A stretch of DNA of 64,000 bases from Patescibacteria group bacterium. Lineage in GTDB: Bacteria; Patescibacteriota; Microgenomatia; Levybacterales; UBA12049. The position numbers were made by a program, and so were the translations under genes. This document shows, piece by piece, positions 40,531 through 59,282 of the stretch. The stretch covers positions 15,430 to 79,429 of the forward strand of contig JBBTVD010000009.1 of assembly GCA_038063415.1 (NCBI GenBank). The letters run 5' to 3'. The notes beneath the pieces are model-generated. The model ran no database searches. It saw nothing but the letters and a program-made list of their open reading frames with translations, and had not been told where the DNA came from. Numbering within the stretch: position 1 is the first letter of the stretch; each line of letters opens with the position of its first letter.

Positions 40531-41346
40531 CTACTCTCTCATTTCAAGTATGTTAGTCAGACAGTTGATTCCTCCACCCGATTTCTTAAACTCCGATAGA
40601 TCTACTTCAATGCTCTCATATCCCAATGCTGCAAGTTTGTTCCCAAAGGTAGGGTTTCCTTTTTGCCTCACAACTGTTTTTCCTGTGACAATACTGTTGG
40701 CAGAAAACCCTTCCGTTTCTTTTCTTGTGAGAGGTATAAAATTGGGCACAATATTCTTCAGAAGTTTCTGACTTTCTGGAATATAGGCATCAGGCGAGAA
40801 GAAGATTGTTTGATCATCGAGTGGGAAGAAACCGATATCAAAATGATAAAACGCTGGAGCTCTCGTATGTAACTGGACAACTTCAATATCCGGGAAGAGC
40901 TTCTGGAGGTATCGACAAACCGGTACATCCGTACGATAGCCGATAGCGACAAACAATTTATCATTCCAAAAATGCATTGTCCCATTTCCTTCAAAATAAA
41001 GCTCCTGGGGAAGCTGTACGATCTCAAAGCCATGATTTTTATACCATTCCGCATAAAACGGTGTTTCTCCCTGGCGCTCTTTGTATCGGAATCGACTCAG
41101 GAGCACGTTGTTGCCAAAGATAAGGCTCTGGTCTGTTGAAAAAACCATATCTGGTAATCCCTTCACCTGGTTAATAATTTCTACTGTTATGCCTAGGTCT
41201 TTATACACTTGTACTAAGTTCTCCCATTGCTTCAGTGCTTTTTTTGGGTTAATACTCGCAGTTTGCATCCATGGATTGATAATATAATCAAACGAGGAGA
41301 AGTAGAGGGGTCTACACATGAGAACACGCTTAATAACGCTCTGCAT
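40531..41346 (-). CDS. amidinotransferase-superfamily enzyme, dimethylarginine dimethylaminohydrolase (DDAH)-like
   Basis: 271 aa. The C-terminal SGGGINCLT carries the catalytic Cys of DDAH/arginine-deiminase-type enzymes. Confidence 0.6.
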   Translation of the reverse strand: MQSVIKRVLMCRPLYFSSFDYIINPWMQTASINPKKALKQWENLVQVYKDLGITVEIINQVKGLPDMVFSTDQSLIFGNNVLLSRFRYKERQGETPFYAEWYKNHGFEIVQLPQELYFEGNGTMHFWNDKLFVAIGYRTDVPVCRYLQKLFPDIEVVQLHTRAPAFYHFDIGFFPLDDQTIFFSPDAYIPESQKLLKNIVPNFIPLTRKETEGFSANSIVTGKTVVRQKGNPTFGNKLAALGYESIEVDLSEFKKSGGGINCLTNILEMRE

Positions 41347-41391
41347 AATATTGTCTTTATTGTACTACGAAGCCTGCATAAGAGCAATAGG

Positions 41392-42207
41392 TTACTCAAC
41401 AGTTTCTTTGAGTACATTGGTCAGACAATGGGCACCACCGCCTGATTTAATAAACTCTCCAACGTCCACTGGTACTGTTTTGTACCCTAATGTCTGTAAT
41501 TTTTTCTCAAGGGTGTGATTTCCTTTTTGTAAGACAACATGATGATCAGTTATGACACTGTTCCCTCCAAATCCCAGCACCTCTTCTTGGCTAAATTCCA
41601 ATAGATTTGGGATTTTCTTTTGTAAGATCTTTTGTGTTTCCAGGGTATAGGCATGTGGGTAATAAAAAACGGTCTGATTATTGAGGGGAAGCATCGCAAC
41701 GTCCAAATGATAATACCTTGGATCAGTAATCTGGAGTGGGATTACTTCCCGGTCAAAAATCTTTTGTAAGGTCGGAATTGTCTCGTCACTACTTCGATAC
41801 CCTACACCGAGGAAAATAAGGTCATTCCAAAAATACATTTCCCCATTGCCTTCAAAAAAGACGTTCTCTGGTAAGTAGTGGATCTTGTAGTCATTGTCCG
41901 AGAACCATGCTTCATAGTATTTGCTCTCCCCTCTCCTCTCTCGGTGACGGAAGCGACTAAGCAGCACTTTCTTATCCTGCACAATTCCTTGATCTGCCGC
42001 AAATACCATGTCAGGCACGTCTTCTCCTTGTTCAATAGTATTCACTTCAATACCAAGCTTTTTATAGACTTGCACCAGATGCTTCCATTGTTTCATAGCT
42101 ACTTCCGTATCTGCTGTCCCTGGTTTCATCCAGGGATTGATGACGTAATCTACTGAAAAATAAGTAGGCCGACAGACGAGCACTTTTTTTATAAGTTTAT
42201 TTTTCAT
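41392..42207 (-). CDS. second DDAH-like amidinotransferase (tandem paralog)
   Basis: 272 aa from MKNKLIKKVLVCRP. It is collinear with the 40531-41346 product (VLVCRPTYFSVDYVINPWM vs VLMCRPLYFSSFDYIINPWM; SGGGAHCLT vs SGGGINCLT). The track ORF's longer N-terminal extension runs into argG and is rejected. Confidence 0.6.
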   Translation of the reverse strand: MKNKLIKKVLVCRPTYFSVDYVINPWMKPGTADTEVAMKQWKHLVQVYKKLGIEVNTIEQGEDVPDMVFAADQGIVQDKKVLLSRFRHRERRGESKYYEAWFSDNDYKIHYLPENVFFEGNGEMYFWNDLIFLGVGYRSSDETIPTLQKIFDREVIPLQITDPRYYHLDVAMLPLNNQTVFYYPHAYTLETQKILQKKIPNLLEFSQEEVLGFGGNSVITDHHVVLQKGNHTLEKKLQTLGYKTVPVDVGEFIKSGGGAHCLTNVLKETVE

Positions 42208-42235
42208 AATGAAAGAATATAATTCTGTGTAGTAA

Positions 42236-43876
42236 CTACACTGTTGCTTTTTGCAGTTTCTCGATGAAGGCTGTCGCAAGGTGAACACTCGTAAAAATTG
42301 GCACATTGTGTTCAACTGCTTTCTGTCTGATAATTTTCCCGTCTGTTTGGGTGACTTCCTTTTCCATAGGGATGTTAATAATAAGATCGAATCTATTGGA
42401 GTCGAGTAGATCTCCAAGGTTTGGCTTAAGTTGCGGCTGAGAAATCTTATGAACCAGAATCGTTTCAAGACCATTGGTCTTAAGGAATTTATGATTCTTG
42501 TAGGTAGCATAGATTTTGTAACCCATGTCATGCAATTTCTTAATTGAAGGAAGCAATTTAACTTTGTTTTCTCTCTTTCCGATTGAAATAAGAGCTGTCT
42601 TCTCTGACCGTTGGGCAAGTTTCATCGACAAGGTATAGTGTTCTATGAAGCCTGCTGATGCATTTTGATTCAGTCCCTCTGATACCATAAAGGTTGCCAG
42701 TTTTTCTTCAAAGATAGTGTTTGGTGTCTCAAGCGCCATAACCTGGGCCATGCCTTTGTAGAGTTGTACTGTTACTTTACCGGTTACTTTTTTATTGACG
42801 TTATCAATAAAGGCGTTTAAATCATGCATTAATGGCTCATACCAGAGTGCTCCATAGCAGAGGTATGCCCATTTTTGATCGACTGTTGCTTTAAATTCAT
42901 TTTCTGTTCTGGTACAGACATAGTGTTCGAGTTTTTCATGAGCAGTAATGATGATCTCGGCAGCCGGAGCTTCAAAAACATCACGAATTTTCATACCAAT
43001 AATTCTATCTTCGATGTGCACGTTCGTCCCTACTCCATGTTTTGCACCAATTTTGTTGAGTTCCATAATAAGATCCGCAAGTTTCATTTGCTTCCCATTA
43101 AGGCTAACGGGTACTCCTTTAACAAATTCAAGATGTACCATTTCTGCTTTATCAGGTGCGTCTTGTGGTAGTTTATTTACGACAAGAATTTTCTCTAGCG
43201 GTGGGATAAGTGCTGGATTTTCGATTTCTCCTCCTTCTCCTGATGTTCCCCACATGTTGTCATCATATGAGTAAGGCTTTTCACTCGTGTGACTGACTGG
43301 GATACCATTCTCTTTGGCATAAGCTAATTCTTCTGTCCTCCCCATGCTCCACTCTCGGACTGGAGCAATAATCTTGATGTCTGGATTAAGGGCAAGGGCT
43401 GAACCTTCAATACGGATCTGGTCATTGCCTCGTCCTGTGCAGCCGTGTGCAATAGCATCTGCTCCTTCTTGTGCAGCGATTTTGACTGCCCATTTGGCAA
43501 GGAGTGGTCGTCCTATTGCTGTTGCGAGACGATAGCGGTGTTGGTAGTTTGCGTTTGCCTTAATGCCTTTTGCGATATATTCTTCAGCAAATTCATCTTT
43601 GGCATCGATAACATACGTTTTGACTGCACCAAGTTTGATAGCTTTTGCTTTGATTTCATCAAGATCATCAACAATTTGTCCAATATCGATTGTGAGGGCA
43701 ATAACTTCTGCTTTATATTCGTCTTGGATCCATTTGAGCATAACTGAGGTATCCAAACCTCCGGAGTATAAGAGGACAACTTTTTTAACTTCACCTTTTT
43801 TGCCTTCGTAACTTGCAACCTTTGTATATGTTGATTTTTTATCCATACAGGTGTCTGTATAAGAAAAGTGAGTCAT
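42236..43876 (-). CDS. argG: argininosuccinate synthase fused to a C-terminal MGS-like (CarB allosteric-domain-like) domain
   Basis: The N-terminal approx 400 aa is ArgG (VVLLYSGGLDTSV, full-length conservation). The C-terminal approx 130 aa (ALISIGKRENK...GYKIYATYKNHKFL...FDLIINIP...DGKIIRQKAVEHNVPIFTS...) matches the methylglyoxal-synthase-like domain pattern of the CarB C-terminus. The probable start is MDKKS at 43846. Confidence 0.75.
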   Translation of the reverse strand: MTHFSYTDTCMDKKSTYTKVASYEGKKGEVKKVVLLYSGGLDTSVMLKWIQDEYKAEVIALTIDIGQIVDDLDEIKAKAIKLGAVKTYVIDAKDEFAEEYIAKGIKANANYQHRYRLATAIGRPLLAKWAVKIAAQEGADAIAHGCTGRGNDQIRIEGSALALNPDIKIIAPVREWSMGRTEELAYAKENGIPVSHTSEKPYSYDDNMWGTSGEGGEIENPALIPPLEKILVVNKLPQDAPDKAEMVHLEFVKGVPVSLNGKQMKLADLIMELNKIGAKHGVGTNVHIEDRIIGMKIRDVFEAPAAEIIITAHEKLEHYVCTRTENEFKATVDQKWAYLCYGALWYEPLMHDLNAFIDNVNKKVTGKVTVQLYKGMAQVMALETPNTIFEEKLATFMVSEGLNQNASAGFIEHYTLSMKLAQRSEKTALISIGKRENKVKLLPSIKKLHDMGYKIYATYKNHKFLKTNGLETILVHKISQPQLKPNLGDLLDSNRFDLIINIPMEKEVTQTDGKIIRQKAVEHNVPIFTSVHLATAFIEKLQKATV

Positions 43877-44169: not shown

Positions 44170-44199
44170 TTGACACCTTCTTCACGGTTTTGCTACGCT
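44170..44199 (+). promoter_or_regulatory. candidate sigma70-like promoter (TTGACA -35, 18-bp spacer, TACGCT -10) upstream of the Cys-rich protein operon
   Basis: A perfect -35 hexamer at 44170-44175 and a weak -10 at 44194-44199, inside a 340-bp AT-rich intergenic region. Confidence 0.25.
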
Positions 44200-44215: not shown

Positions 44216-45334
44216 ATGAAGCATCATCCTACCCATCATCATAAAAAGAAAGAACGTAGACCCTTAGTCTACTTCCTTCTCTTTCTTCTCATTCCAGTTC
44301 TGGCTATTACACTTTTTGTCATGCAGGAGCCGCAGGATGTCAGACAACGAGCTGCTGAACCTATTGCTGGATGTGGAAAGCCGGGAGACCCAGGGAACGA
44401 AAAAGGCGTAGGAAAATACTGTAATAGTTCGGTAGATTGTTTAGGTTCGGGGTCGCCGATTTGTTCCGCAGATATACGGCCAGATGATCCGCATATTTGT
44501 TCAAAACCTTGTAGTACAGATGCCGATTGTGGCAGTGGAGCTGTTTGTTATCAGGATGTACTGGGTAAAGGGTGTAAGCCTGTTGCCTGTGATGCTCCTG
44601 TTCCGACAGCGACAACACAGCCAACTGCTACCAAAGCTCCTACTGCAACTACTGCACCGAGTGCTACCAATAGGCCGACAATGACGACTGCACCTTCAGT
44701 AACAAAAGCACCTACAGTTGCTGCTTCGATAACCATTGCTCCAAGTGTCACGCAAACACCTACACAAACAGTCACAGTCTCTCCTACGTTAAGTCCAAGT
44801 GCCACAACGCTATCTCTGTCAGTACTTCTTCATGGTATCGGTTCTGGGGGAGATAGTGTCAATATCTCCAGTGCCTTGAGTAACAAGTCACCCAAGCGAA
44901 CAGATCGCTTGTTTACGGTAACTGTATTTACTGGAGCCAATCAGATTGTGAGCAACAAGACTGTTCCTCTAACGTATAATACAGATACTGGTGCCTACGA
45001 AGGCATTGTGAATCTTGGAGACACCTGGTTGGGATCTAGTTATAGTCTCAAGATCAAGACAGAAAGCTTTTTGGATAATGTCCAGACAAACTTTGCTATT
45101 CCTGCCAAAAAGAAAACGGATGTTCCTGAGGTGATCTTGGTTGTGGGAGATGTCAATGGAGATAATATGTTAAATACGCTTGATTATAATTTGATTACCG
45201 GTTGCTTTAGTGAGTTTGCCACGGCTGCTTCCTGTTCCGAGAGCCAACTCGTTGCCTCAGATCTCAACGATGATGGTGTCGTGAATCGTGTCGATTATAA
45301 TCTTTTTCTACGGGAGATAAGTGCGCAGAATTAG
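44216..45334 (+). CDS. secreted Cys-rich protein (8-Cys domain), T/P/A-rich linker, C-terminal dockerin-like pair of Ca-binding repeats
   Basis: 372 aa. Basic N-terminus plus hydrophobic anchor, then an 8-Cys module (CGKPGDPGNEKGVGKYC...CSAD...ICSKPCS..DCGSGAVC...LGKGCKPVAC). The C-terminal GDVNGDNMLNTLDYNLI and DLNDDGVVNRVDYNLFL fit dockerin type-I D-x-N-x-D-G-x-x-N-x-x-D repeats. Confidence 0.55.
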   Translation: MKHHPTHHHKKKERRPLVYFLLFLLIPVLAITLFVMQEPQDVRQRAAEPIAGCGKPGDPGNEKGVGKYCNSSVDCLGSGSPICSADIRPDDPHICSKPCSTDADCGSGAVCYQDVLGKGCKPVACDAPVPTATTQPTATKAPTATTAPSATNRPTMTTAPSVTKAPTVAASITIAPSVTQTPTQTVTVSPTLSPSATTLSLSVLLHGIGSGGDSVNISSALSNKSPKRTDRLFTVTVFTGANQIVSNKTVPLTYNTDTGAYEGIVNLGDTWLGSSYSLKIKTESFLDNVQTNFAIPAKKKTDVPEVILVVGDVNGDNMLNTLDYNLITGCFSEFATAASCSESQLVASDLNDDGVVNRVDYNLFLREISAQN

Positions 45335-45398
45335 CTGATATGATATATTGACTTGCTATAAAATTTTCTGCTACGCTTAAAAAGTTATATCCTTAGTT

Positions 45399-46076
45399 AT
45401 GAAAGTAAAAAAGAAAAAAGTTCAGATAAAAAAGAAACAGGTTTCTCGGAAACTGCTGTGGTTTTTTGTCCTGATACCCGCTCTGCTGCTTACCGTCGTT
45501 GCTCTACAATCGCCACAAATAGTTAAACAAGAGGCAGCAACAAGCGGAATTACCACCTGTGGAGGTTCAGGTGAGCCTGGAAACGAAAAAGGAGTCGGAA
45601 AAGCTTGCACTAAGGGTGGCGGAGAATGCGGTGGTGATGCCCCTTTTTGCTCGGCAGATTTTGTCGATGGTCCAGGGGTATGTTCAAAGCCTTGTTCTAA
45701 CAATAATGAATGTGGAACGGGAGCAAAATGTGTACAACAAAGTCTTGGCAAAGGCTGCGAGCCAGTAGTCTGCGCAGAGGAAGCACAGCCAACTGATTTT
45801 GTTCCCAGTGCACAATGTCTGGGTACTTCCTGTGAGGAAAATGATGCTGAAGAAGAGGAAGGAGATAGCGAAGATACTGAAACAGATAATGAAGCGACAG
45901 ATTCTGCGGAAGAAGATCCTGATGAAAACGGCGACAATCAAAATAATGATGAAGAAAATGATAACCAAGGAGATAATGATGGTGGAGGCAATGAAGATGC
46001 AAAGGGATTGTTCTTCAGAATTCTTGAACTTATTAGCCAGCTATTGGAACTCTTCATTGGGTGGTTACAGAAATAA
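45399..46076 (+). CDS. secreted Cys-rich paralog (same 8-Cys domain) with poly-acidic D/E/N-rich C-terminal tail
   Basis: 225 aa. Signal anchor, then CGGSGEPGNEKGVGKAC...CSAD...VCSKPCS..ECGTGAKC...LGKGCEPVVC, collinear with the upstream protein. The tail is EENDAEEEEGDSEDTETDNE... Confidence 0.5.
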   Translation: MKVKKKKVQIKKKQVSRKLLWFFVLIPALLLTVVALQSPQIVKQEAATSGITTCGGSGEPGNEKGVGKACTKGGGECGGDAPFCSADFVDGPGVCSKPCSNNNECGTGAKCVQQSLGKGCEPVVCAEEAQPTDFVPSAQCLGTSCEENDAEEEEGDSEDTETDNEATDSAEEDPDENGDNQNNDEENDNQGDNDGGGNEDAKGLFFRILELISQLLELFIGWLQK

Positions 46077-47275
46077 TGCTCAGTTCATTGTTTAAAACAA
46101 AAAGATTTTTTCTTCTCCTGCTTCTTTTGCTCGTTATTTTTGTTGTCCGGCAAATTTTTCTGTCCTCTCCATCACATGAGTTAACGTATACCGTTACTCG
46201 TGGTGAGTTAGTTGACACTGTTGAGGCAAGTGGTATGTTTATGACGGCTTTGCAAAAAGAGATTTTTTCTCCGACAAAAGGGGTTATTACTCAGTTATAT
46301 GTGGTGAACAATCAGGAAGTAAAAAAAGGTGAGCCCCTCTTTCATGTCGAAAGTACCGCTACTGAAAAGGAAAAAATCACGGCACTCGCCACCTATCAAA
46401 CAGCAGTAAGTACGTTAACGACTGCTCAACAAACAAAAGAGTCCCTTGATGCTACGATGTGGACAGAACATAAAGCATTGCTTGATGCACAAAATGCAAA
46501 GAACTTTCAAGAAGATAATACGACAAATCCTGATACTGATGATACGTATACTGATTTAGAAAAAAGGAGTCTCGATTCTGCGCTTGTTCAAGCCAGAAAG
46601 GACTTTGCCACGGCTGAGAAAAAATACAAAGAAGCTGACAGTGCAATTGTGGCTGCTCAAGCATCTCTTGCATCTGCAAAAAGAGTGTACGATGAAACAA
46701 AAGATGTAACTATTGCTGCTCCTGTTGGTGGGACGATCGTTAATTTGTTAAAAAAAGTTGGTGATGAAGTCTCTATCCCTGAGACATCTTCAGAATCACA
46801 ATCACAGAAAAAGCCTGTTCTCCCAGTACTCATGATTGCTAATCTAGCAAATCCAGTGATTATCGCAACGGTTAATGAATCATATATCCCTCGCATTACT
46901 ACTGGACAAAGAGTATCAGTTATCTTTGATGCACTGAAAGAAGAACGTTTTACTGGCTCGGTTGCCGAGGTAGATACGATAGGAACCGATACTGATGGCG
47001 TGGTCACCTATCAAGTTCGTATAGAATTTCCAGATATTCCTCCAACCATCCGTCCTAAAATGACAGCCATTGTGTCTATTGAGACGTTGTACAAAAGTAA
47101 TGTATTGACTGTACCTAATAGTGCGCTACTGACACAAGATGGAAAGACGTATATTAAAAAGAATGGTAAAGTGAACGAGCTAATTGCAGTTACGACTGGA
47201 AAAAGAGGAACCACAAAGACCGAAGTTACCTCAGGTCTTGAAGAAGGAGATGTCATTCTGGCAAATGTACAATGA
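46061..47275 (+). CDS. HlyD/MacA-family periplasmic adaptor (membrane fusion protein)
   Basis: 404 aa. N-terminal TM, a long coiled-coil-prone segment, and a C-terminal beta-barrel/lipoyl-like region (TVPNSAL...). It overlaps both neighbours by a few nt. Confidence 0.6.
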   Translation: MVTEIMLSSLFKTKRFFLLLLLLLVIFVVRQIFLSSPSHELTYTVTRGELVDTVEASGMFMTALQKEIFSPTKGVITQLYVVNNQEVKKGEPLFHVESTATEKEKITALATYQTAVSTLTTAQQTKESLDATMWTEHKALLDAQNAKNFQEDNTTNPDTDDTYTDLEKRSLDSALVQARKDFATAEKKYKEADSAIVAAQASLASAKRVYDETKDVTIAAPVGGTIVNLLKKVGDEVSIPETSSESQSQKKPVLPVLMIANLANPVIIATVNESYIPRITTGQRVSVIFDALKEERFTGSVAEVDTIGTDTDGVVTYQVRIEFPDIPPTIRPKMTAIVSIETLYKSNVLTVPNSALLTQDGKTYIKKNGKVNELIAVTTGKRGTTKTEVTSGLEEGDVILANVQ

Positions 47276-48540
47276 AGAATATACAAGGTTATGATAAAGA
47301 TTTCTCGGTAGGTTTTTTCTTGGCACTTCGAGATATACGCCGGAGTAATCCCTGGACCACTTCTCTTATTATTACGGTCATGACGTTAACCTTTTTTAAT
47401 ATGTTGTTTGTCGGTGGGATACTTATTGGACTTGTTTCGGGACTTATTGAGGGTTTCCGGCAGTATTACTCAGGTGATGTTTTTATTAGTCCTGCTGATG
47501 AAAAATATACTATTGAACAGACCAGTACCATAATCTCTGTAGCAGAAAGTGTCCCGACCTTCGTTTCTCTCTCCAAACGATATACAGAAAATGTTCTTGT
47601 GGAAAGCAACTATCGTAACCGTGTTCGTACAACTGATGCTCCAGAAAGCGTCGGCGCTATACTTGTTGGTATTGATCCACAAGCGGAAGACAAAATTTCT
47701 CATTTGTCCAGATATCTTGTCGAAGGAGCATTCCTGGACAAAAATGATGTGGATGCTGTGGTCATTGGGAAAGACTTGCTCGCAAAGTACGTCAAAAATA
47801 TCCAGGCAGTAACAAAAAAACTCCATGACGTCAAGATTGGTACCAAAATACGTCTGACCGTGAATGGCAAGCAAGAAGAAGTAACAGTCAAAGGCATTAT
47901 TAATACGACTAATCAGATTGCTGATACACGAGTCTATATGACAGAGGCTATGGTACGAAAACTTTTGGGAAGAGAAAGTCTTAATGCCAATGAAATTGCT
48001 ATTGACTTAGCTCCAGGTGCATCTGATGAAGAAGCAAAGGAATTTATTACCGCAAATATTTCAAATGGTACCGATGTAAAGGTCCAAACAGCTGATGATG
48101 CTGTCCCTGCAGGAAGCGTTGATGTCAAACAGACGTTTATTGTTCTTCGAGATATTGTTGGATTTATCGCGTTGATTGTCGGAGCCATTACGATCTTTAT
48201 TGTTATTTTTGTTAATGCGATTACGAGGCGAAAGTTTATTGGTATCCTTAAAGGTATTGGAATCTCCTCACGGGCAATTCAAATATCTTATGTTTATCAG
48301 GCATTGTTTTATGCAGTATCGGGGATCATCATTGGTAGTATCATTATCATGGGAATGCTCAAGCCGTATTTTGACATATATCCTTTGCAACTACCTATTG
48401 CCGAGGGACGTCTTGCCCTGAGCTATACAGATCTTTTGATTAGAGCCGGTATTTTAACCCTTACGGCTTTTATTTCCGGGTTTATTCCTGCATGGTTAGT
48501 AACAAAGCAAAATACCCTGGATGCGATTTTGGGGAGATAA
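47272..48540 (+). CDS. FtsX/MacB-type ABC transporter permease (4 TM with large periplasmic loop)
   Basis: 422 aa. TM1, then an approx 250-aa extracytoplasmic domain, then three C-terminal TM helices (FIALIVGAITIFIV..., ...IIGSIIIMGML..., ...LTLTAFISGFIPA...), the FtsX-like arrangement. Confidence 0.7.
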   Translation: MKNIQGYDKDFSVGFFLALRDIRRSNPWTTSLIITVMTLTFFNMLFVGGILIGLVSGLIEGFRQYYSGDVFISPADEKYTIEQTSTIISVAESVPTFVSLSKRYTENVLVESNYRNRVRTTDAPESVGAILVGIDPQAEDKISHLSRYLVEGAFLDKNDVDAVVIGKDLLAKYVKNIQAVTKKLHDVKIGTKIRLTVNGKQEEVTVKGIINTTNQIADTRVYMTEAMVRKLLGRESLNANEIAIDLAPGASDEEAKEFITANISNGTDVKVQTADDAVPAGSVDVKQTFIVLRDIVGFIALIVGAITIFIVIFVNAITRRKFIGILKGIGISSRAIQISYVYQALFYAVSGIIIGSIIIMGMLKPYFDIYPLQLPIAEGRLALSYTDLLIRAGILTLTAFISGFIPAWLVTKQNTLDAILGR

Positions 48541-48560
48541 TTTTAGTTCTGTACAATATT

Positions 48561-49250
48561 ATGATGGAAGTAAAAAATTTAATAAAAAAGTTTCAAACTG
48601 GTGATACTGAGTTGATTGCTCTCAAAAATCTTAGCTTTACCGTCCCGACAGGGCAATTTCTCGCAATTACTGGTCGTTCAGGTTCTGGCAAAAGTACCTT
48701 GCTCTATCAGATGAGCTTGCTTGATCGTGCCAATGAAGGAAAACTTATCATTGATGATCAGGAAGTTTCAGCCTTTACTAATGATGAACGTGTTGCCTAC
48801 CGTCGGGATAATTTTGGTTTTGTTTTTCAAGATTATGCTCTCCTTCCGGTTCTTACGGCGAAAGAAAATGTTATGCTCCCAATGTTGATGCAAGGGGTTG
48901 CCAAGAGTATCACAAGAGAAAAGACTGAGAAAGCCCTGCAACGAGTCGGCCTGTCAGATCGATTTGATTATCTTCCCAGTCAGCTCTCTGGTGGACAACA
49001 ACAGCGTGTGAGTATTGCCCGGGCGATTGCGCATAATCCAAGGATTGTGTTCGCTGATGAACCGACAGCCAATCTTGATACTGAGTCATCCAAAATCGTT
49101 CTGGATATCTTTCTCGAGCTTAATAAATCAGGCCAAACGATTATTATGGTAACGCACGAGCCTGATTATGCCAAACTTGCTGATCGAAGGATCGAGTTGT
49201 TGGATGGAGATATTGTTAATGATATCGGACAAAAAAAGGGCAAAAAGTGA
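48561..49250 (+). CDS. ABC transporter ATP-binding protein (MacB/LolD-type)
   Basis: Walker A GRSGSGKST, Q-loop, signature LSGGQQQRVSIARA, Walker B IVFADEPT, H-loop VTHE. The ATG at 48561 (MMEVKNL) is preferred over the track start at 48492. Confidence 0.85.
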   Translation: MMEVKNLIKKFQTGDTELIALKNLSFTVPTGQFLAITGRSGSGKSTLLYQMSLLDRANEGKLIIDDQEVSAFTNDERVAYRRDNFGFVFQDYALLPVLTAKENVMLPMLMQGVAKSITREKTEKALQRVGLSDRFDYLPSQLSGGQQQRVSIARAIAHNPRIVFADEPTANLDTESSKIVLDIFLELNKSGQTIIMVTHEPDYAKLADRRIELLDGDIVNDIGQKKGKK

Positions 49251-56033: not shown

Positions 56034-59000
56034 CTAGGTAGCACTTGGGAGTGGTTCCCTCTTTTTTGCTTTTAGTTCTAGTGCCCCATCGCCAATCTGC
56101 AGAGACTCAAGTTCGTTGGTAGGAGGTAAAAGACGGTTTATGGTAGCGGTCATTTTAGGACTAAAGCCAACGAGACCTTCTTCAATCTTTCCTCGGAATA
56201 ATCCAGCAAATTTTGCCAGTCCGCGAAAATTGATAGTGTGATCTTCAACTCTTAAACTGTTTCCTTCGTTTGCAAGAGTTATTGTAAAGGTTGCTTGTCC
56301 AAAGGAAGAATTTACTACCCCTTGTACAACAAATTGCTTCTGTCCAGTTGGTGTATCGACTATTTCCCCTGTTAGCTCTCTAAGTTTGCCCATTGGCAAT
56401 TTTTTCTGTACCTCTGGTTTGGCTAATTCGATTATGGTATCAGGTGTAATTCCAACCTGGAGATCAGGGGTGTTCTCCTCGTCAGTTTCATTTTTAAAAG
56501 CGAGATTCAACGGGATTTTTCCAAATGTCGTATCCATTGCGGTTTCTACGATAAATTGTTTTTTTCCATCTGGTGTCTCCTGGATTCCCCCTGATACATC
56601 TGCCAGTGTCCGAATTGGAAAACGAGTCTTTTGCCAATACGGCATTGTTTCTATTTTATGACGGGCTTTTTGGGTAATGCTTTCAAAGAGTATATCTTGT
56701 GCAATTGTTGCTTGGATATCAGAGCCTGATCTTTCTGGAGAATCTTCATTGGGATCCGCTGTCGGGAGTTCAGGTTGTCCTGTTCGTCTGGCTTTAAGCT
56801 CTAGTACCCCATCTCTAATCTGTAATGAGTCAAGTTCACCAACAGGTAATTGACGGTTTATCGTAGCTGTTACTATTTTATCAAAATTTTCTACATATTT
56901 TTCTATCTTACTTTCAGCTATCTTTTGAACCCGCTTTACTTTACCAATGCCAGTATAGTCAATAATCCTGTCGACAACTTTTAGACCTTTGCCTTCATTC
57001 TCAAAGGTGAGATCAAAAAAAGCTCCTCCAAAGGAAGTGGCAACTCTTCCTTTAAGAAGAAACTGTTTGCTTCCCTCAGGGGTATCGGTTATTTCTCCTG
57101 TTAGTTCTTGTATAGCACCTATTGGCAGAGGGTATTGCTTGACCAGATTACATAACACATCTGGTGGTAAAGTAGCTTGTATAATAGGCTGTTGCTCTGC
57201 TTGGTCTCTTTCTACAACAGCAAGCGCAAAAGAAGTTTCTCCGAATGGTGCTCCTAAGGCTCCTTCTACGACAAGTTCTGGTTTTCCACTTTGGCCATCA
57301 CGAATGTTTTCCGTAAGCTCTTTTAATGAATAACCATAGGGCAAGCGTACAAACTTTTTAGCAAGAGAGGATACCATGTCTGGTCTAATTGCAACTTCTA
57401 TCGTATGTTCTTGTGGTCTTCTCGCTTCACGTTCTGATGACGTTTCGTCTGCGGCATCTCTGTTTACTCTTTCCAAAAGGGGTTCTCCCCTGTTTTGAGC
57501 TGGAGAAGGTTGTGTTTCTTCCGTTACATCTGCAGGAGAAGAATGAGTTTGTAATCCTTCTGGTGTTTGGATAATCACTTTGGAATGTCCTCCATGGTGT
57601 ATCGTTGCATCATCACCTCTCGTTGTATGAAGAATATTTATGATAAGATCGTTCTCGGTCGCCGTTGCTATGCCAATAGGTGGTGCAAATATTCGAGGAT
57701 CTCTTTCTCTCTTAATAAATTGTTGTTCAGAAAGACGTAAGTCACCCGCTGATGGTTCTCCCTGATATATCTCTCCAAGCGACAGGTGATGTGTATGTAT
57801 TAGTGCTGTGGGTGCTCCTCCTTCATCCCCCGGCCAGTATGATTGCAAGAATCCTGCAAGATTTAATTTTCTTGCTAATTCTCGGGCTTTTTCTTCTCGT
57901 ATTTCTGCACGTATCATTACGTCTCCAATTCGAGGTTCTTTAAAATCAGAAGCCGGTGCTGCAAATCCGGCGATAAAGATATCGTTGTTATTATCCCTTC
58001 GTACCCTTATTCCCTGAAGAGAAAATGCTAATTCCCGGTTACGATCATTGGAAGCTTCTGCATAGCGTTGTATCATTGCTCTCGCGACGTTTGAAATGAC
58101 AAATACAGGTTGGTTTTGAGGGAAATCTGGCTCCCTTGCCATACTTTCTGTTTGAGCAGTGAGTTGTTTATACAAGGGTAACATATCCACCTGATCCTTT
58201 TTAATTTCTCCTGTTTGATAATCAACCATACGTTCCGCTATTTCCCTTGCAATAACATCTGATGACAATATGTCTTCTCCAGCTCTAATAGCTGTGGCTT
58301 CATGAGGTTGCAGACGTCTATTTAAAACCGCAGAAGCTTCCATCATTCTTTGATGTGAACTTTCATCACTACCTAAGGGATCAGATTCAGGAGAAGTAAG
58401 TTCAGGGGTAGAAGTTTGCCTTGTCTCAGGAGGCGTTGGCTCTGGTTGGTCAACTTGTTCATGTTCTCTCTGGCGGAGAGAAGGTTCTTGAAGTTTTTTA
58501 GCAAGCTTATCAAAGCCACTAATACTTGCTTGATCGGTTATCGGATTCTCTACTTCAGTAACAATTTCGGGTGCCAGTCTTCTGCGTTGGTCTGGAGATT
58601 GTGAAAGAATACTTCTTGCATCAATGTCTGCTTGAATTACTCTTACGATATCCAGATGTCCAAATGTCCGTTGGAAAAAGGGGGTAAGTCTTTTCAGGCG
58701 AGAAAGAGCTTGATCTCGATTTACCACTCCGTTTTGATCAAATTCAGCAAGGAAGTTCTGTGCAAAGTCTTCATAGAGTGCTTCTTTCTCTAAATATTGG
58801 TCATAAAATTGGTTAATTTGGTTTAGTTCAAGCGTATTTTCTACAGGCACACCACTTGCTGTTAACGTAGCTTTTACTGCTTGTTGTGTTTTTTCATCTG
58901 CTCCATCAAACCATGTTTTAAATCCTCGTCTCCAGTTTGTGTATTTCTCCTCGTCTGTTCCCTCTTTGGTGGCATCATACGCTTGGCGGTCCTCCCAGGC

Positions 59001-59282
59001 AACCTGAGCAACAAAGCGTGAAGGAAGTTGAGATGTTTTCATTTCTGGTATTTCAGAAATAAAGCCATTTCTTTCAGCAGGGGTAATTGTTTGTTTTGGA
59101 TTACTGAGACGAGGATCTCGAGAGCTCATCAAAAATCGTGCTGTCTCAGGAGAGATACCTTGCGATTTTTCTTTCTCTGGTATACGAACGTTTTTTGCCC
59201 ATTCAGCAGGTCTACGGATACTTTCAAGGACAGCTACCATACTACTGCAGTATACCATGCCAGAACGAGAGAAGAATTTCAA
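56034..59282 (-). CDS. giant hypothetical protein (1082 aa) with tandemly duplicated approx 190-aa C-terminal modules
   Basis: Long uninterrupted ORF. The C-terminal third contains two homologous modules, each with two sub-repeats (GEItDTPeGsKQF...SFG.A.F.lTf.NEG..L.V.D, ending TATINRqLP...EL.SLQI.DG.LELKA.). No recognisable catalytic motif. Confidence 0.6.
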   Translation of the reverse strand: MKFFSRSGMVYCSSMVAVLESIRRPAEWAKNVRIPEKEKSQGISPETARFLMSSRDPRLSNPKQTITPAERNGFISEIPEMKTSQLPSRFVAQVAWEDRQAYDATKEGTDEEKYTNWRRGFKTWFDGADEKTQQAVKATLTASGVPVENTLELNQINQFYDQYLEKEALYEDFAQNFLAEFDQNGVVNRDQALSRLKRLTPFFQRTFGHLDIVRVIQADIDARSILSQSPDQRRRLAPEIVTEVENPITDQASISGFDKLAKKLQEPSLRQREHEQVDQPEPTPPETRQTSTPELTSPESDPLGSDESSHQRMMEASAVLNRRLQPHEATAIRAGEDILSSDVIAREIAERMVDYQTGEIKKDQVDMLPLYKQLTAQTESMAREPDFPQNQPVFVISNVARAMIQRYAEASNDRNRELAFSLQGIRVRRDNNNDIFIAGFAAPASDFKEPRIGDVMIRAEIREEKARELARKLNLAGFLQSYWPGDEGGAPTALIHTHHLSLGEIYQGEPSAGDLRLSEQQFIKRERDPRIFAPPIGIATATENDLIINILHTTRGDDATIHHGGHSKVIIQTPEGLQTHSSPADVTEETQPSPAQNRGEPLLERVNRDAADETSSEREARRPQEHTIEVAIRPDMVSSLAKKFVRLPYGYSLKELTENIRDGQSGKPELVVEGALGAPFGETSFALAVVERDQAEQQPIIQATLPPDVLCNLVKQYPLPIGAIQELTGEITDTPEGSKQFLLKGRVATSFGGAFFDLTFENEGKGLKVVDRIIDYTGIGKVKRVQKIAESKIEKYVENFDKIVTATINRQLPVGELDSLQIRDGVLELKARRTGQPELPTADPNEDSPERSGSDIQATIAQDILFESITQKARHKIETMPYWQKTRFPIRTLADVSGGIQETPDGKKQFIVETAMDTTFGKIPLNLAFKNETDEENTPDLQVGITPDTIIELAKPEVQKKLPMGKLRELTGEIVDTPTGQKQFVVQGVVNSSFGQATFTITLANEGNSLRVEDHTINFRGLAKFAGLFRGKIEEGLVGFSPKMTATINRLLPPTNELESLQIGDGALELKAKKREPLPSAT

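Follow-up and report, generated by a model that had tools for sequence, protein, structure and literature searches.

Candidate cysteine-rich surface proteins encoded beside a MacAB/YknXYZ-like pump in a Patescibacteria genome

We analyzed a 64-kb stretch of DNA (hereafter the window) from a Patescibacteria group bacterium, a member of the Candidate Phyla Radiation (CPR), in which five co-directional open reading frames (ORFs) on the + strand, at 44216–49250, encode two paralogous cysteine-rich proteins (p1 and p2), a HlyD-type adaptor, an FtsX-type permease and an ABC ATPase. The reading that we favor, with middling confidence, is that of a surface-protein pair whose genes lie next to those of a generic efflux pump and are in this genome probably co-transcribed with them. 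The locus would be two separate things side by side, the pair being found in a subset of Patescibacteria. Part of this reading is that the pump would be devoted neither to the export of the Cys-rich proteins nor to immunity against them, a point on which we stand midway between belief and doubt. A bacteriocin-type export/immunity role, to which a preliminary description of the same DNA had likened the arrangement, is not supported. What p1 and p2 have in common is a 10-Cys module that represents an undescribed but sizeable domain family that neither Pfam nor NCBIfam nor the PDB contains. Much of the diversity of uncultured bacteria belongs to the Patescibacteria, which are thought to be host-attached and whose surface proteins are almost entirely unannotated.

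The paralogy of the two proteins, which the preliminary description had recognized along with the five adjacent genes, is clear: p1 (372 aa, 44216–45334, +; NCBI MEK7571341.1, "dockerin type I domain-containing protein") and p2 (225 aa, 45399–46076, +; MEK7571342.1, "hypothetical protein") share 52% identity over 112 aa (E 1e-33). Both begin with a basic N-terminus and a single hydrophobic helix of ~20 residues, followed by a Q-rich juxtamembrane stretch and the Cys-rich module. The module occupies aa 53–125 of p1 (44372–44590, +, delimited from the Cys positions, the profile and the structure model) and aa 54–125 of p2 (45558–45773, +, by alignment with p1), and within the window it is confined to these two proteins. 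It had been described as an eight-Cys unit; however, its conserved cysteines number ten (residues 53, 69, 75, 83, 95, 99, 105, 111, 120 and 125 of p1), as they also do in the pattern that was then given. All ten are invariant in an alignment of 73 module sequences, and exactly ten Cys are present in 131 of 167 module instances.

The earlier statement that the module matches no named family was borne out. No Pfam-A or NCBIfam model reached threshold on the module in the ~20 family members scanned, and a PDB sequence search with it returned nothing significant (best E 0.12, to cystine-knot peptides). The AlphaFold2 (AF2) model of the p1 module is compact and confidently predicted (pLDDT 91.7, pTM 0.81), and it found no significant fold match in the PDB (best Foldseek E 0.75 over 25 columns). 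A profile search of 1.84 billion representatives recovered 574 module clusters (50% identity) at E ≤ 1e-3, 166 of them at E ≤ 1e-10. The idea that the family is extremely rare was rejected on this exhaustive search; it had come from a word-indexed homologue search that returned 5 module proteins, missing even p1 and p2, and that is unreliable for judging rarity.

Most family members come from Myxococcota, and the matches in species-representative genomes are metagenome-assembled genomes of Myxococcota/Polyangia; CPR-type module proteins number a few dozen. In Myxococcota, the module proteins are typically 120–160 aa long and lipoprotein-like. The module also occurs as tandem arrays of up to 8 copies and fused to other domains, most frequently Cu2_monoox_C, and also CBM_4_9, metallophosphatase and beta-propeller domains. 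It thus behaves as a mobile extracytoplasmic domain. Because these contexts are extracytoplasmic and the Cys count is even and invariant, the most economical reading of the sequences is that the module would be a disulfide-knotted binding or structural unit, presumably with five disulfides.

Could the module instead handle metals, copper being the obvious candidate, or serve as a redox domain, so that p1 and p2 would act in metal homeostasis? Its ten invariant Cys would suit such a role, as would its association outside the CPR with PHM-like copper monooxygenases. Fusions of the module to a PHM-like domain (Pfam Cu2_monoox_C) account for 14 of 155 representative proteins; among the fetched loci counted (16 high-GC plus the low-GC L059; loci and proteins retrieved in the searches are cited by L and P numbers), 9 have a PHM-like gene and the module fused, 5 have the PHM-like gene as the immediate downstream neighbor of the module and 2 have one at a distance of ~4 kb. 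To judge from these fusions and neighborhoods, the association is a strong link of the Rosetta-stone type. On the other hand, the 64-kb window has no PHM-like gene, and an even Cys count, an extracytoplasmic location and a knottin/Dickkopf-like second half are typical of disulfide-rich modules. A structural or binding unit also fits the fusions of the module to carbohydrate-binding (CBM), dockerin and phosphatase domains, and its arrays with as many as 8 copies. We therefore regard a metal-handling or redox role as very unlikely.

In its own right, the fusion or adjacency of module and PHM-like gene in Myxococcota is an independent lead. The module stands either at the C-terminus of the PHM-like domain or in a gene directly 5' of the PHM-like gene, as at L001:10001-11352; further loci of these kinds are L026, L027, L031, L042, L045, L050, L052, L057, L058, L059, L068, L073 and L074. 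We also observed that, among the stand-alone module proteins of Myxococcota, some have the terminal sequence ...GLFG, with glycine as the last residue (L010:9839-10270, L011:9875-10267, L014:9872-10258), while other family members end differently; at L010 and L044 a PHM-like gene lies ~4 kb away. PHM enzymes act on peptidyl-glycine, and therefore the GLFG-ending proteins could be substrates. We know of no established function for the bacterial PHM-like enzymes.

The C-termini of p1 and p2 diverge, as the preliminary description had stated. From its N-terminus, p1 (44216–45334) is built of an anchor, the 10-Cys module, a T/P-rich low-complexity linker (aa 126–196 in the translation, 44591–44803, +) and a predicted dyad of X-module and dockerin (XDoc; 44804–45334, +). 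The beta-sandwich X-module spans about aa 197–312, and the dockerin scores 29.5 bits with PF00404 (Dockerin_1, cutoff 22.9) over aa 311–364; both calcium-binding D-x-N-x-D-G/N repeats are visible, DVNGDNMLNTLDYN and DLNDDGVVNRVDYN. The AF2 model of aa 197–372 is confident (pLDDT 93.4, pTM 0.89), and the ten best Foldseek matches to this tail are all X-module/type II dockerin chains of CipA (E 5e-8 to 5.5e-6 over 172–186 columns, TM-score about 0.55–0.65), led by 2b59_B (E 5e-8, TM-scores 0.55/0.61 over ~175 columns). According to the predicted structure, then, the C-terminus of p1 is an XDoc dyad like that of Clostridium thermocellum CipA (type II).

The partner of an XDoc dyad in cellulosomes is the cohesin of another surface protein, into which it plugs. 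It is plausible that p1 works in the same manner: the module would present a T/P-rich stalk, which would carry the dyad to dock into a cohesin. By this analogy, p1 is most likely one component of a cohesin–dockerin-type surface assembly or adhesion layer. The same XDoc cassette ends many CPR proteins with unrelated heads. At one related locus (L081), a p1-type gene lies 850 bp from a gene for a membrane-anchored cohesin protein (Pfam 30.1 bits, cutoff 24.1). No glycoside hydrolase was found in the window. Our literature search on Patescibacteria, dockerin and cysteine-rich proteins found nothing on the combination; for dockerins as such, one cultured Saccharibacterium has an essential dockerin protein (PMC10633639).

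The surroundings of that related locus are an observation of their own. The region L081:149-9692 (Logan SRR29472098) is a CPR surface-protein island with at least five proteins that end in the same X-module–dockerin cassette and carry cohesin-like, VWA+SdrD_B or 10-Cys heads, together with the small anchored cohesin protein. The island has the look of a cohesin–dockerin system that is not cellulolytic.

In p2 (45399–46076), the anchor and module are followed by a CLGxxC loop, an acidic spacer (28 D/E in 55 residues of the tail) and a C-terminal amphipathic helix, GLFFRILELISQLLELFIGWLQ (46002–46070, +). The helix has a hydrophobic moment (muH) of 0.56 and a mean hydrophobicity <H> of 0.41, compared with 0.03–0.13 and 0.92 for the transmembrane anchors, and on these two measures we rejected the idea that it is a second membrane anchor. 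The same architecture is found in P0001, P0002, P0016, P0020, P0022, P0031 and the p2 gene of L021: these p2-type proteins share the CLGxxC mini-loop, a low-complexity spacer (acidic here, T/P-rich in relatives) and the terminal helix, which stays amphipathic (muH 0.34–0.68). In the proposed arrangement, the module of p2 would lead through the loop and spacer to this helix, which probably mediates protein–protein or interfacial contacts.

A gene for an XDoc protein followed by a p2-type gene is found in the window and in L007, L020, L021, L024 and L084, and also in L006, where the two are split by IS1595; L081, L080 and L022 are exceptions. This pair is a better conserved unit than the succession of p2 and HlyD genes discussed below. 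In L006, the p2-type gene is preceded by an XDoc-gene fragment, and a transposase gene of the IS1595 family interrupts the two (L006:2012-2896).

The pairing raises the alternative that each XDoc protein has its partner in the p2-type protein of the next gene downstream, which would act through the helix or the module as a non-cohesin receptor or co-anchor. The pair of genes would in that case encode a surface complex of two proteins. The order of XDoc and p2 genes is the best conserved across lineages, even in L024, where the XDoc protein has a different N-terminal head, and no cohesin is encoded in the window. However, known dockerins bind cohesin beta-sandwiches, a domain that p2 does not have; XDoc proteins occur without p2 (L080, L081), the p2-type gene of L022 has no XDoc gene before it, and the island of L081 contains a genuine cohesin. 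On balance, we find this partnership distinctly unlikely.

The favored reading of a surface-protein pair also requires that both proteins be held at the membrane. The hydrophobic anchor of p1, at about aa 16–36 (44261–44323, +), is the sole such segment of the protein (Kyte–Doolittle peak 2.88) and has a transmembrane-like character (Eisenberg <H> 0.93, muH 0.03). p2 likewise has one hydrophobic segment, so that the basic N-terminus and anchor that had been described for both were found. The predicted topology is that the basic N-terminus and the helix would insert p1 and p2 in the membrane, with the module directly outside it. Just after the helix, at 44324–44371 and 45513–45557, both proteins carry a motif of approximately L-Q-x-(Q/H)-R-Q-x-x-x-Q-x-A-(Q/A), which also occurs in relatives of p1 and p2 and in unrelated CPR surface proteins with XDoc, cohesin or VWA domains (L024:8495-9763 and several genes of L081). 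Its role may be that of a signal for sorting or processing that is specific to the lineage.

The three genes that follow passed curated family thresholds, in agreement with the earlier assignment to a YknXYZ/MacAB-like set. The HlyD/MacA/YknX-type membrane-fusion adaptor (399 aa, 46076–47275, +; other possible starts are 46061, GTG, and 46088, TTG) scores 97.9 bits with TIGR01730 (cutoff 94.9), also matches HlyD_D23, Biotin_lipoyl_2 and HlyD_3, has an N-terminal hydrophobic segment (aa 2–34), and matches MacA in the PDB (5nik_D, 3e-14) and, weakly, the YknX Pfam families. The FtsX/MacB-type permease (422 aa, 47272–48540, +) scores 47.6 bits with PF02687 (cutoff 25.5) and matches YtrF (2.4e-7) and MacB (4.9e-4) in the PDB. 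Its hydropathy profile predicts four transmembrane segments (29–63, 285–326, 340–367 and 387–411) and an extracytoplasmic loop of ~220 aa; MacB_PCD (PF12704) was not reported for it at E ≤ 1 and is precomputed for the orthologues P0159, P0173 and P0175, at 53–57% identity. The ABC ATPase (229 aa, 48561–49250, +) scores 116.9 bits with PF00005 and, among NCBIfam models, 226 bits with the MacB nucleotide-binding domain (NBD), 212 with LolD and 206 with the lactococcin-972-type ABC protein; the NCBIfam equivalog cutoffs were not reached, and it is assigned only at the level of the MacB/LolD/FtsE clade.

Homologues of the permease number more than 3789, mostly from Patescibacteria, and over 100 of them are 50–71% identical. 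By family assignment, the trio is an ordinary, very abundant Patescibacteria cassette of the MacAB/YknXYZ-like (type VII ABC) kind. The mechanotransmission of the MacB family and its Gram-positive-style MacAB/YknXYZ arrangement have been reviewed (PMC5985334). We found no further membrane-protein ORF, either a TolC-like duct or a YknW, in or beside the cluster, and PADLOC gave no defense-system match beyond generic ATPase similarity. By such mechanotransmission, the pump would expel substances from the outer membrane face or the wall zone. In monoderms, antimicrobial peptides are the usual suggested substrate.

The genes are tightly spaced. There are 64 nt between p1 and p2; the stop codon of p2 shares bases with the start codon of the adaptor gene (TAATG at 46074–46078), as does the stop codon of the adaptor gene with the start codon of the permease gene (ATGA at 47272–47275). 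Terminator prediction gave no + strand terminator-like site between the five genes. The preliminary description had the starts of all three pump genes overlapping. This holds for the adaptor and the permease but not for the ATPase, which would begin ~20 nt after the permease stop: its longest ORF runs from 48492, and 48561 is most likely the start, since residue 24 of that ORF is where every family alignment sets in. The window is 99.9–100% identical to Hainich groundwater assemblies (Hain_H14, 0.2 µm fraction), and its proteins are deposited at NCBI under a metagenome-assembled genome. In one sister assembly (L016:11969-12727; window 48714–48817), ten clustered substitutions split the ATPase ORF; at 6x coverage and with the substitutions clustered, we set pseudogenization aside as most likely an assembly error.

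Upstream of each paralogue lies a promoter-like element, TTGACA-N15-TGCTACGCT before p1 (44170–44199, +; a -35 element, an 18-nt spacer and TACGCT as -10) and TTGACT-N15-TGCTACGCT before p2 (45348–45377, +). The pattern TTGAC(A/T)-N15-TGCTACGCT has two exact matches in the window, both 5' of the paralogues, against an expectation of 0.16, and the element is kept 5' of both genes in L021 and 5' of p2 in L007. We infer that p1 and p2 each have their own sigma-70-like promoter. Since the p2 stop overlaps the adaptor start, the pump genes are in this lineage probably transcribed from the p2 promoter.

Do the five genes form a functional unit in which the MacB-type pump handles p1 and/or p2, as a refinement of the idea in the preliminary description? 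In such a unit, the pump would extract the anchored proteins from the outer leaflet in a LolCDE-like fashion, or push the oxidized proteins through the wall zone, and the membrane-proximal 10-Cys module would be the handle that it recognizes. There are precedents for related activities: MacAB handles the disulfide-bonded enterotoxin STII, Aat handles dispersin, and LolCDE extracts its substrates from the outer leaflet. The tight co-directional packing, the TAATG overlap of p2 and HlyD and the lack of a predicted terminator all speak for a unit, as does the recurrence of the same order in the diverged L083/L084. Furthermore, members of the MacB family are documented to handle peptides and proteins (to about 10 kDa) that they take from the extracytoplasmic side (PMC5985334).

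On the other hand, the trio, with its >3789 homologues, is far more widespread in Patescibacteria than the module, and p1 and p2 exceed any documented MacB substrate in size. The closest trios on long contigs outside the two lineages (50–58% identity) follow MarR (L076, L079) or Obg (L077), and no module gene is present there; conversely, the p2-type gene is followed by other genes and no trio in L021 (within the 5.6 kb downstream), L007 and L006. Module genes of Myxococcota do not show the linkage either: about 55 loci together had a single FtsX gene and a single ABC gene at a distance of a few kb. We consider the functional unit unlikely, if not negligibly so. The conservation of the linkage had been named as the test, with different neighbors of the ABC system in relatives as the ground for rejection; because of the trios preceded by MarR or Obg and the pairs without a trio, different neighbors are largely what was found, while L083/L084 keep the order.

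Several observations nevertheless weigh against reading the locus as a surface-protein pair and an unconnected pump. The TAATG overlap points to p2 and the adaptor being translationally coupled. In L083/L084, a HlyD homologue begins 52 nt after the p2-type gene, which is preceded by an XDoc gene fragment, even though these loci are well diverged from the window (47% identity for p2, 60% for HlyD, about 69% for the DNA); because of them, the notion that p2 precedes the trio in the population of the window alone was rejected. The adjacency of p2 and HlyD is found in two of five informative lineages, from either direction, and is more than a one-off accident. In a neighbor-joining tree built from HlyD N-termini, the window, L083, L076 and L079 form one group (100% bootstrap), within which the branching order has bootstraps of 25–39%; the tree fits both common inheritance and repeated juxtaposition of p2 and HlyD. 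Finally, for the docking of p1, no cohesin-like ORF was found in the 64-kb window.

A further version concerns the module itself, as a new fold and family with a function of its own: either the recognition handle by which a MacB-type pump with its adaptor extracts or releases N-terminally anchored surface proteins in Patescibacteria, or the dedicated partner domain of bacterial PHM-like copper monooxygenases, borrowed by a CPR lineage. We rate this version as improbable. If the pump-handle form were true, the ubiquitous CPR pumps would have a Lol-like protein-sorting role; if the PHM-partner form were true, a CPR lineage would have borrowed the module for its cohesin–dockerin surface system; and in either case a great many "hypothetical" proteins of two phyla would gain a function. 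What the locus yields in any case is a confidently modelled, uncatalogued Cys-rich domain with at least 574 clusters across Myxococcota and Patescibacteria, and evidence that CPR bacteria build their surface with a CipA-like XDoc cassette, cohesins being nearby in at least one relative. The pump is ordinary in itself, and the locus raises the question of whether HlyD–FtsX–ABC pumps of CPR bacteria are involved in the handling of surface proteins.

Two other regions of the window were noted. At 40531–43876 (-), tandem DDAH/amidinotransferase-like paralogues (40531–41346 and about 41392–42207) follow an argininosuccinate synthase with an extra C-terminal MGS-like domain (42236–43876, -), the domains being those precomputed for the identical contig of L016. 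At 56034–59282 (-), a 1082-aa ORF contains internal repeats (~150 aa each, as in "...TPDGKKQF.V......FG......F.NE..."). Neither a signal sequence nor a Pfam match was found in it, and on these grounds it was rejected as a cohesin carrier.

How does the locus compare with known systems? For the module, the nearest named family is TIGR04201 (Myxo_Cys_RPT), which we take to be the repeat family of the stalk of the Myxococcus xanthus surface receptor TraA, papers on which mention repeats of this kind. The second half of the module (C-x3-C-x3-D-x-D-C-G-x-G-A-x-C) matches it weakly, and most module family members are likewise from Myxococcota and extracytoplasmic. However, the likeness reaches 16–20.6 bits against a curated cutoff of 25 and covers ~20 of ~75 module residues, with no counterpart of the N-terminal half, including the invariant G-N-x-x-G-[VI]-G-x-x-C. 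Scores for p1 (16.0 bits), P0003 (20.6), P0073 (14.1) and P0053 (15.0) are all below the cutoff, and p2 and the multi-repeat proteins P0006, P0008 and P0014 gave no match. Knottins (inhibitor cystine knots) and Dickkopf–colipase mini-domains are similarly small, disulfide-rich and extracellular; ~25 module residues superpose on them at a root-mean-square deviation of 1.1–2 Å, and there are weak sequence matches to cystine-knot peptides, Dickkopf_N (E 0.47) and CarbpepA_inh (E 0.05). None of these is significant (E at least 0.05 for sequence and at least 0.75 for fold), a third of the module is covered, and the whole ~75-residue 10-Cys unit has no structural match.

The bacteriocin and peptide-toxin export-immunity ABC operons (AS-48EFGH; YknWXYZ against SDP) resemble the locus in that secreted Cys-containing proteins adjoin a MacB-type ABC transporter and an adaptor. 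They differ in that the locus has no small precursor peptide, leader-peptidase domain, or biosynthetic or immunity gene; no C39 peptidase, lantibiotic or immunity family was matched in the five proteins, and no PCAT-type transporter is present. The candidate cargo here consists of multidomain anchored proteins of 225–372 aa, and the linkage to the pump is patchy (2 of 5 informative lineages). For these reasons the likeness drawn in the preliminary description is not supported.

The pump itself is closer to its models. Compared with MacAB, YknXYZ of B. subtilis/B. amyloliquefaciens and SpMacAB of S. pneumoniae, the cluster has the order adaptor–permease–ATPase with NBD and permease as separate genes, no YknW-like fourth membrane protein or TolC, low identity to the characterized members, and surface-protein genes instead of a regulator in front of the pump. 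Nevertheless, the parts list is the same, and the host, like those of the Gram-positive MacAB-like pumps, is believed to have no outer membrane. The p1 tail, in turn, is only ~20% identical to the CipA type II XDoc (PDB 2b59, 5g5d, 4fl4), and it is carried by a membrane-anchored protein with a Cys-rich head in a Patescibacterium, not by a cellulosomal scaffoldin. Yet the predicted structure has the same build, in which an Ig-like X-module is packed on a dockerin of duplicated segments at the extreme C-terminus.

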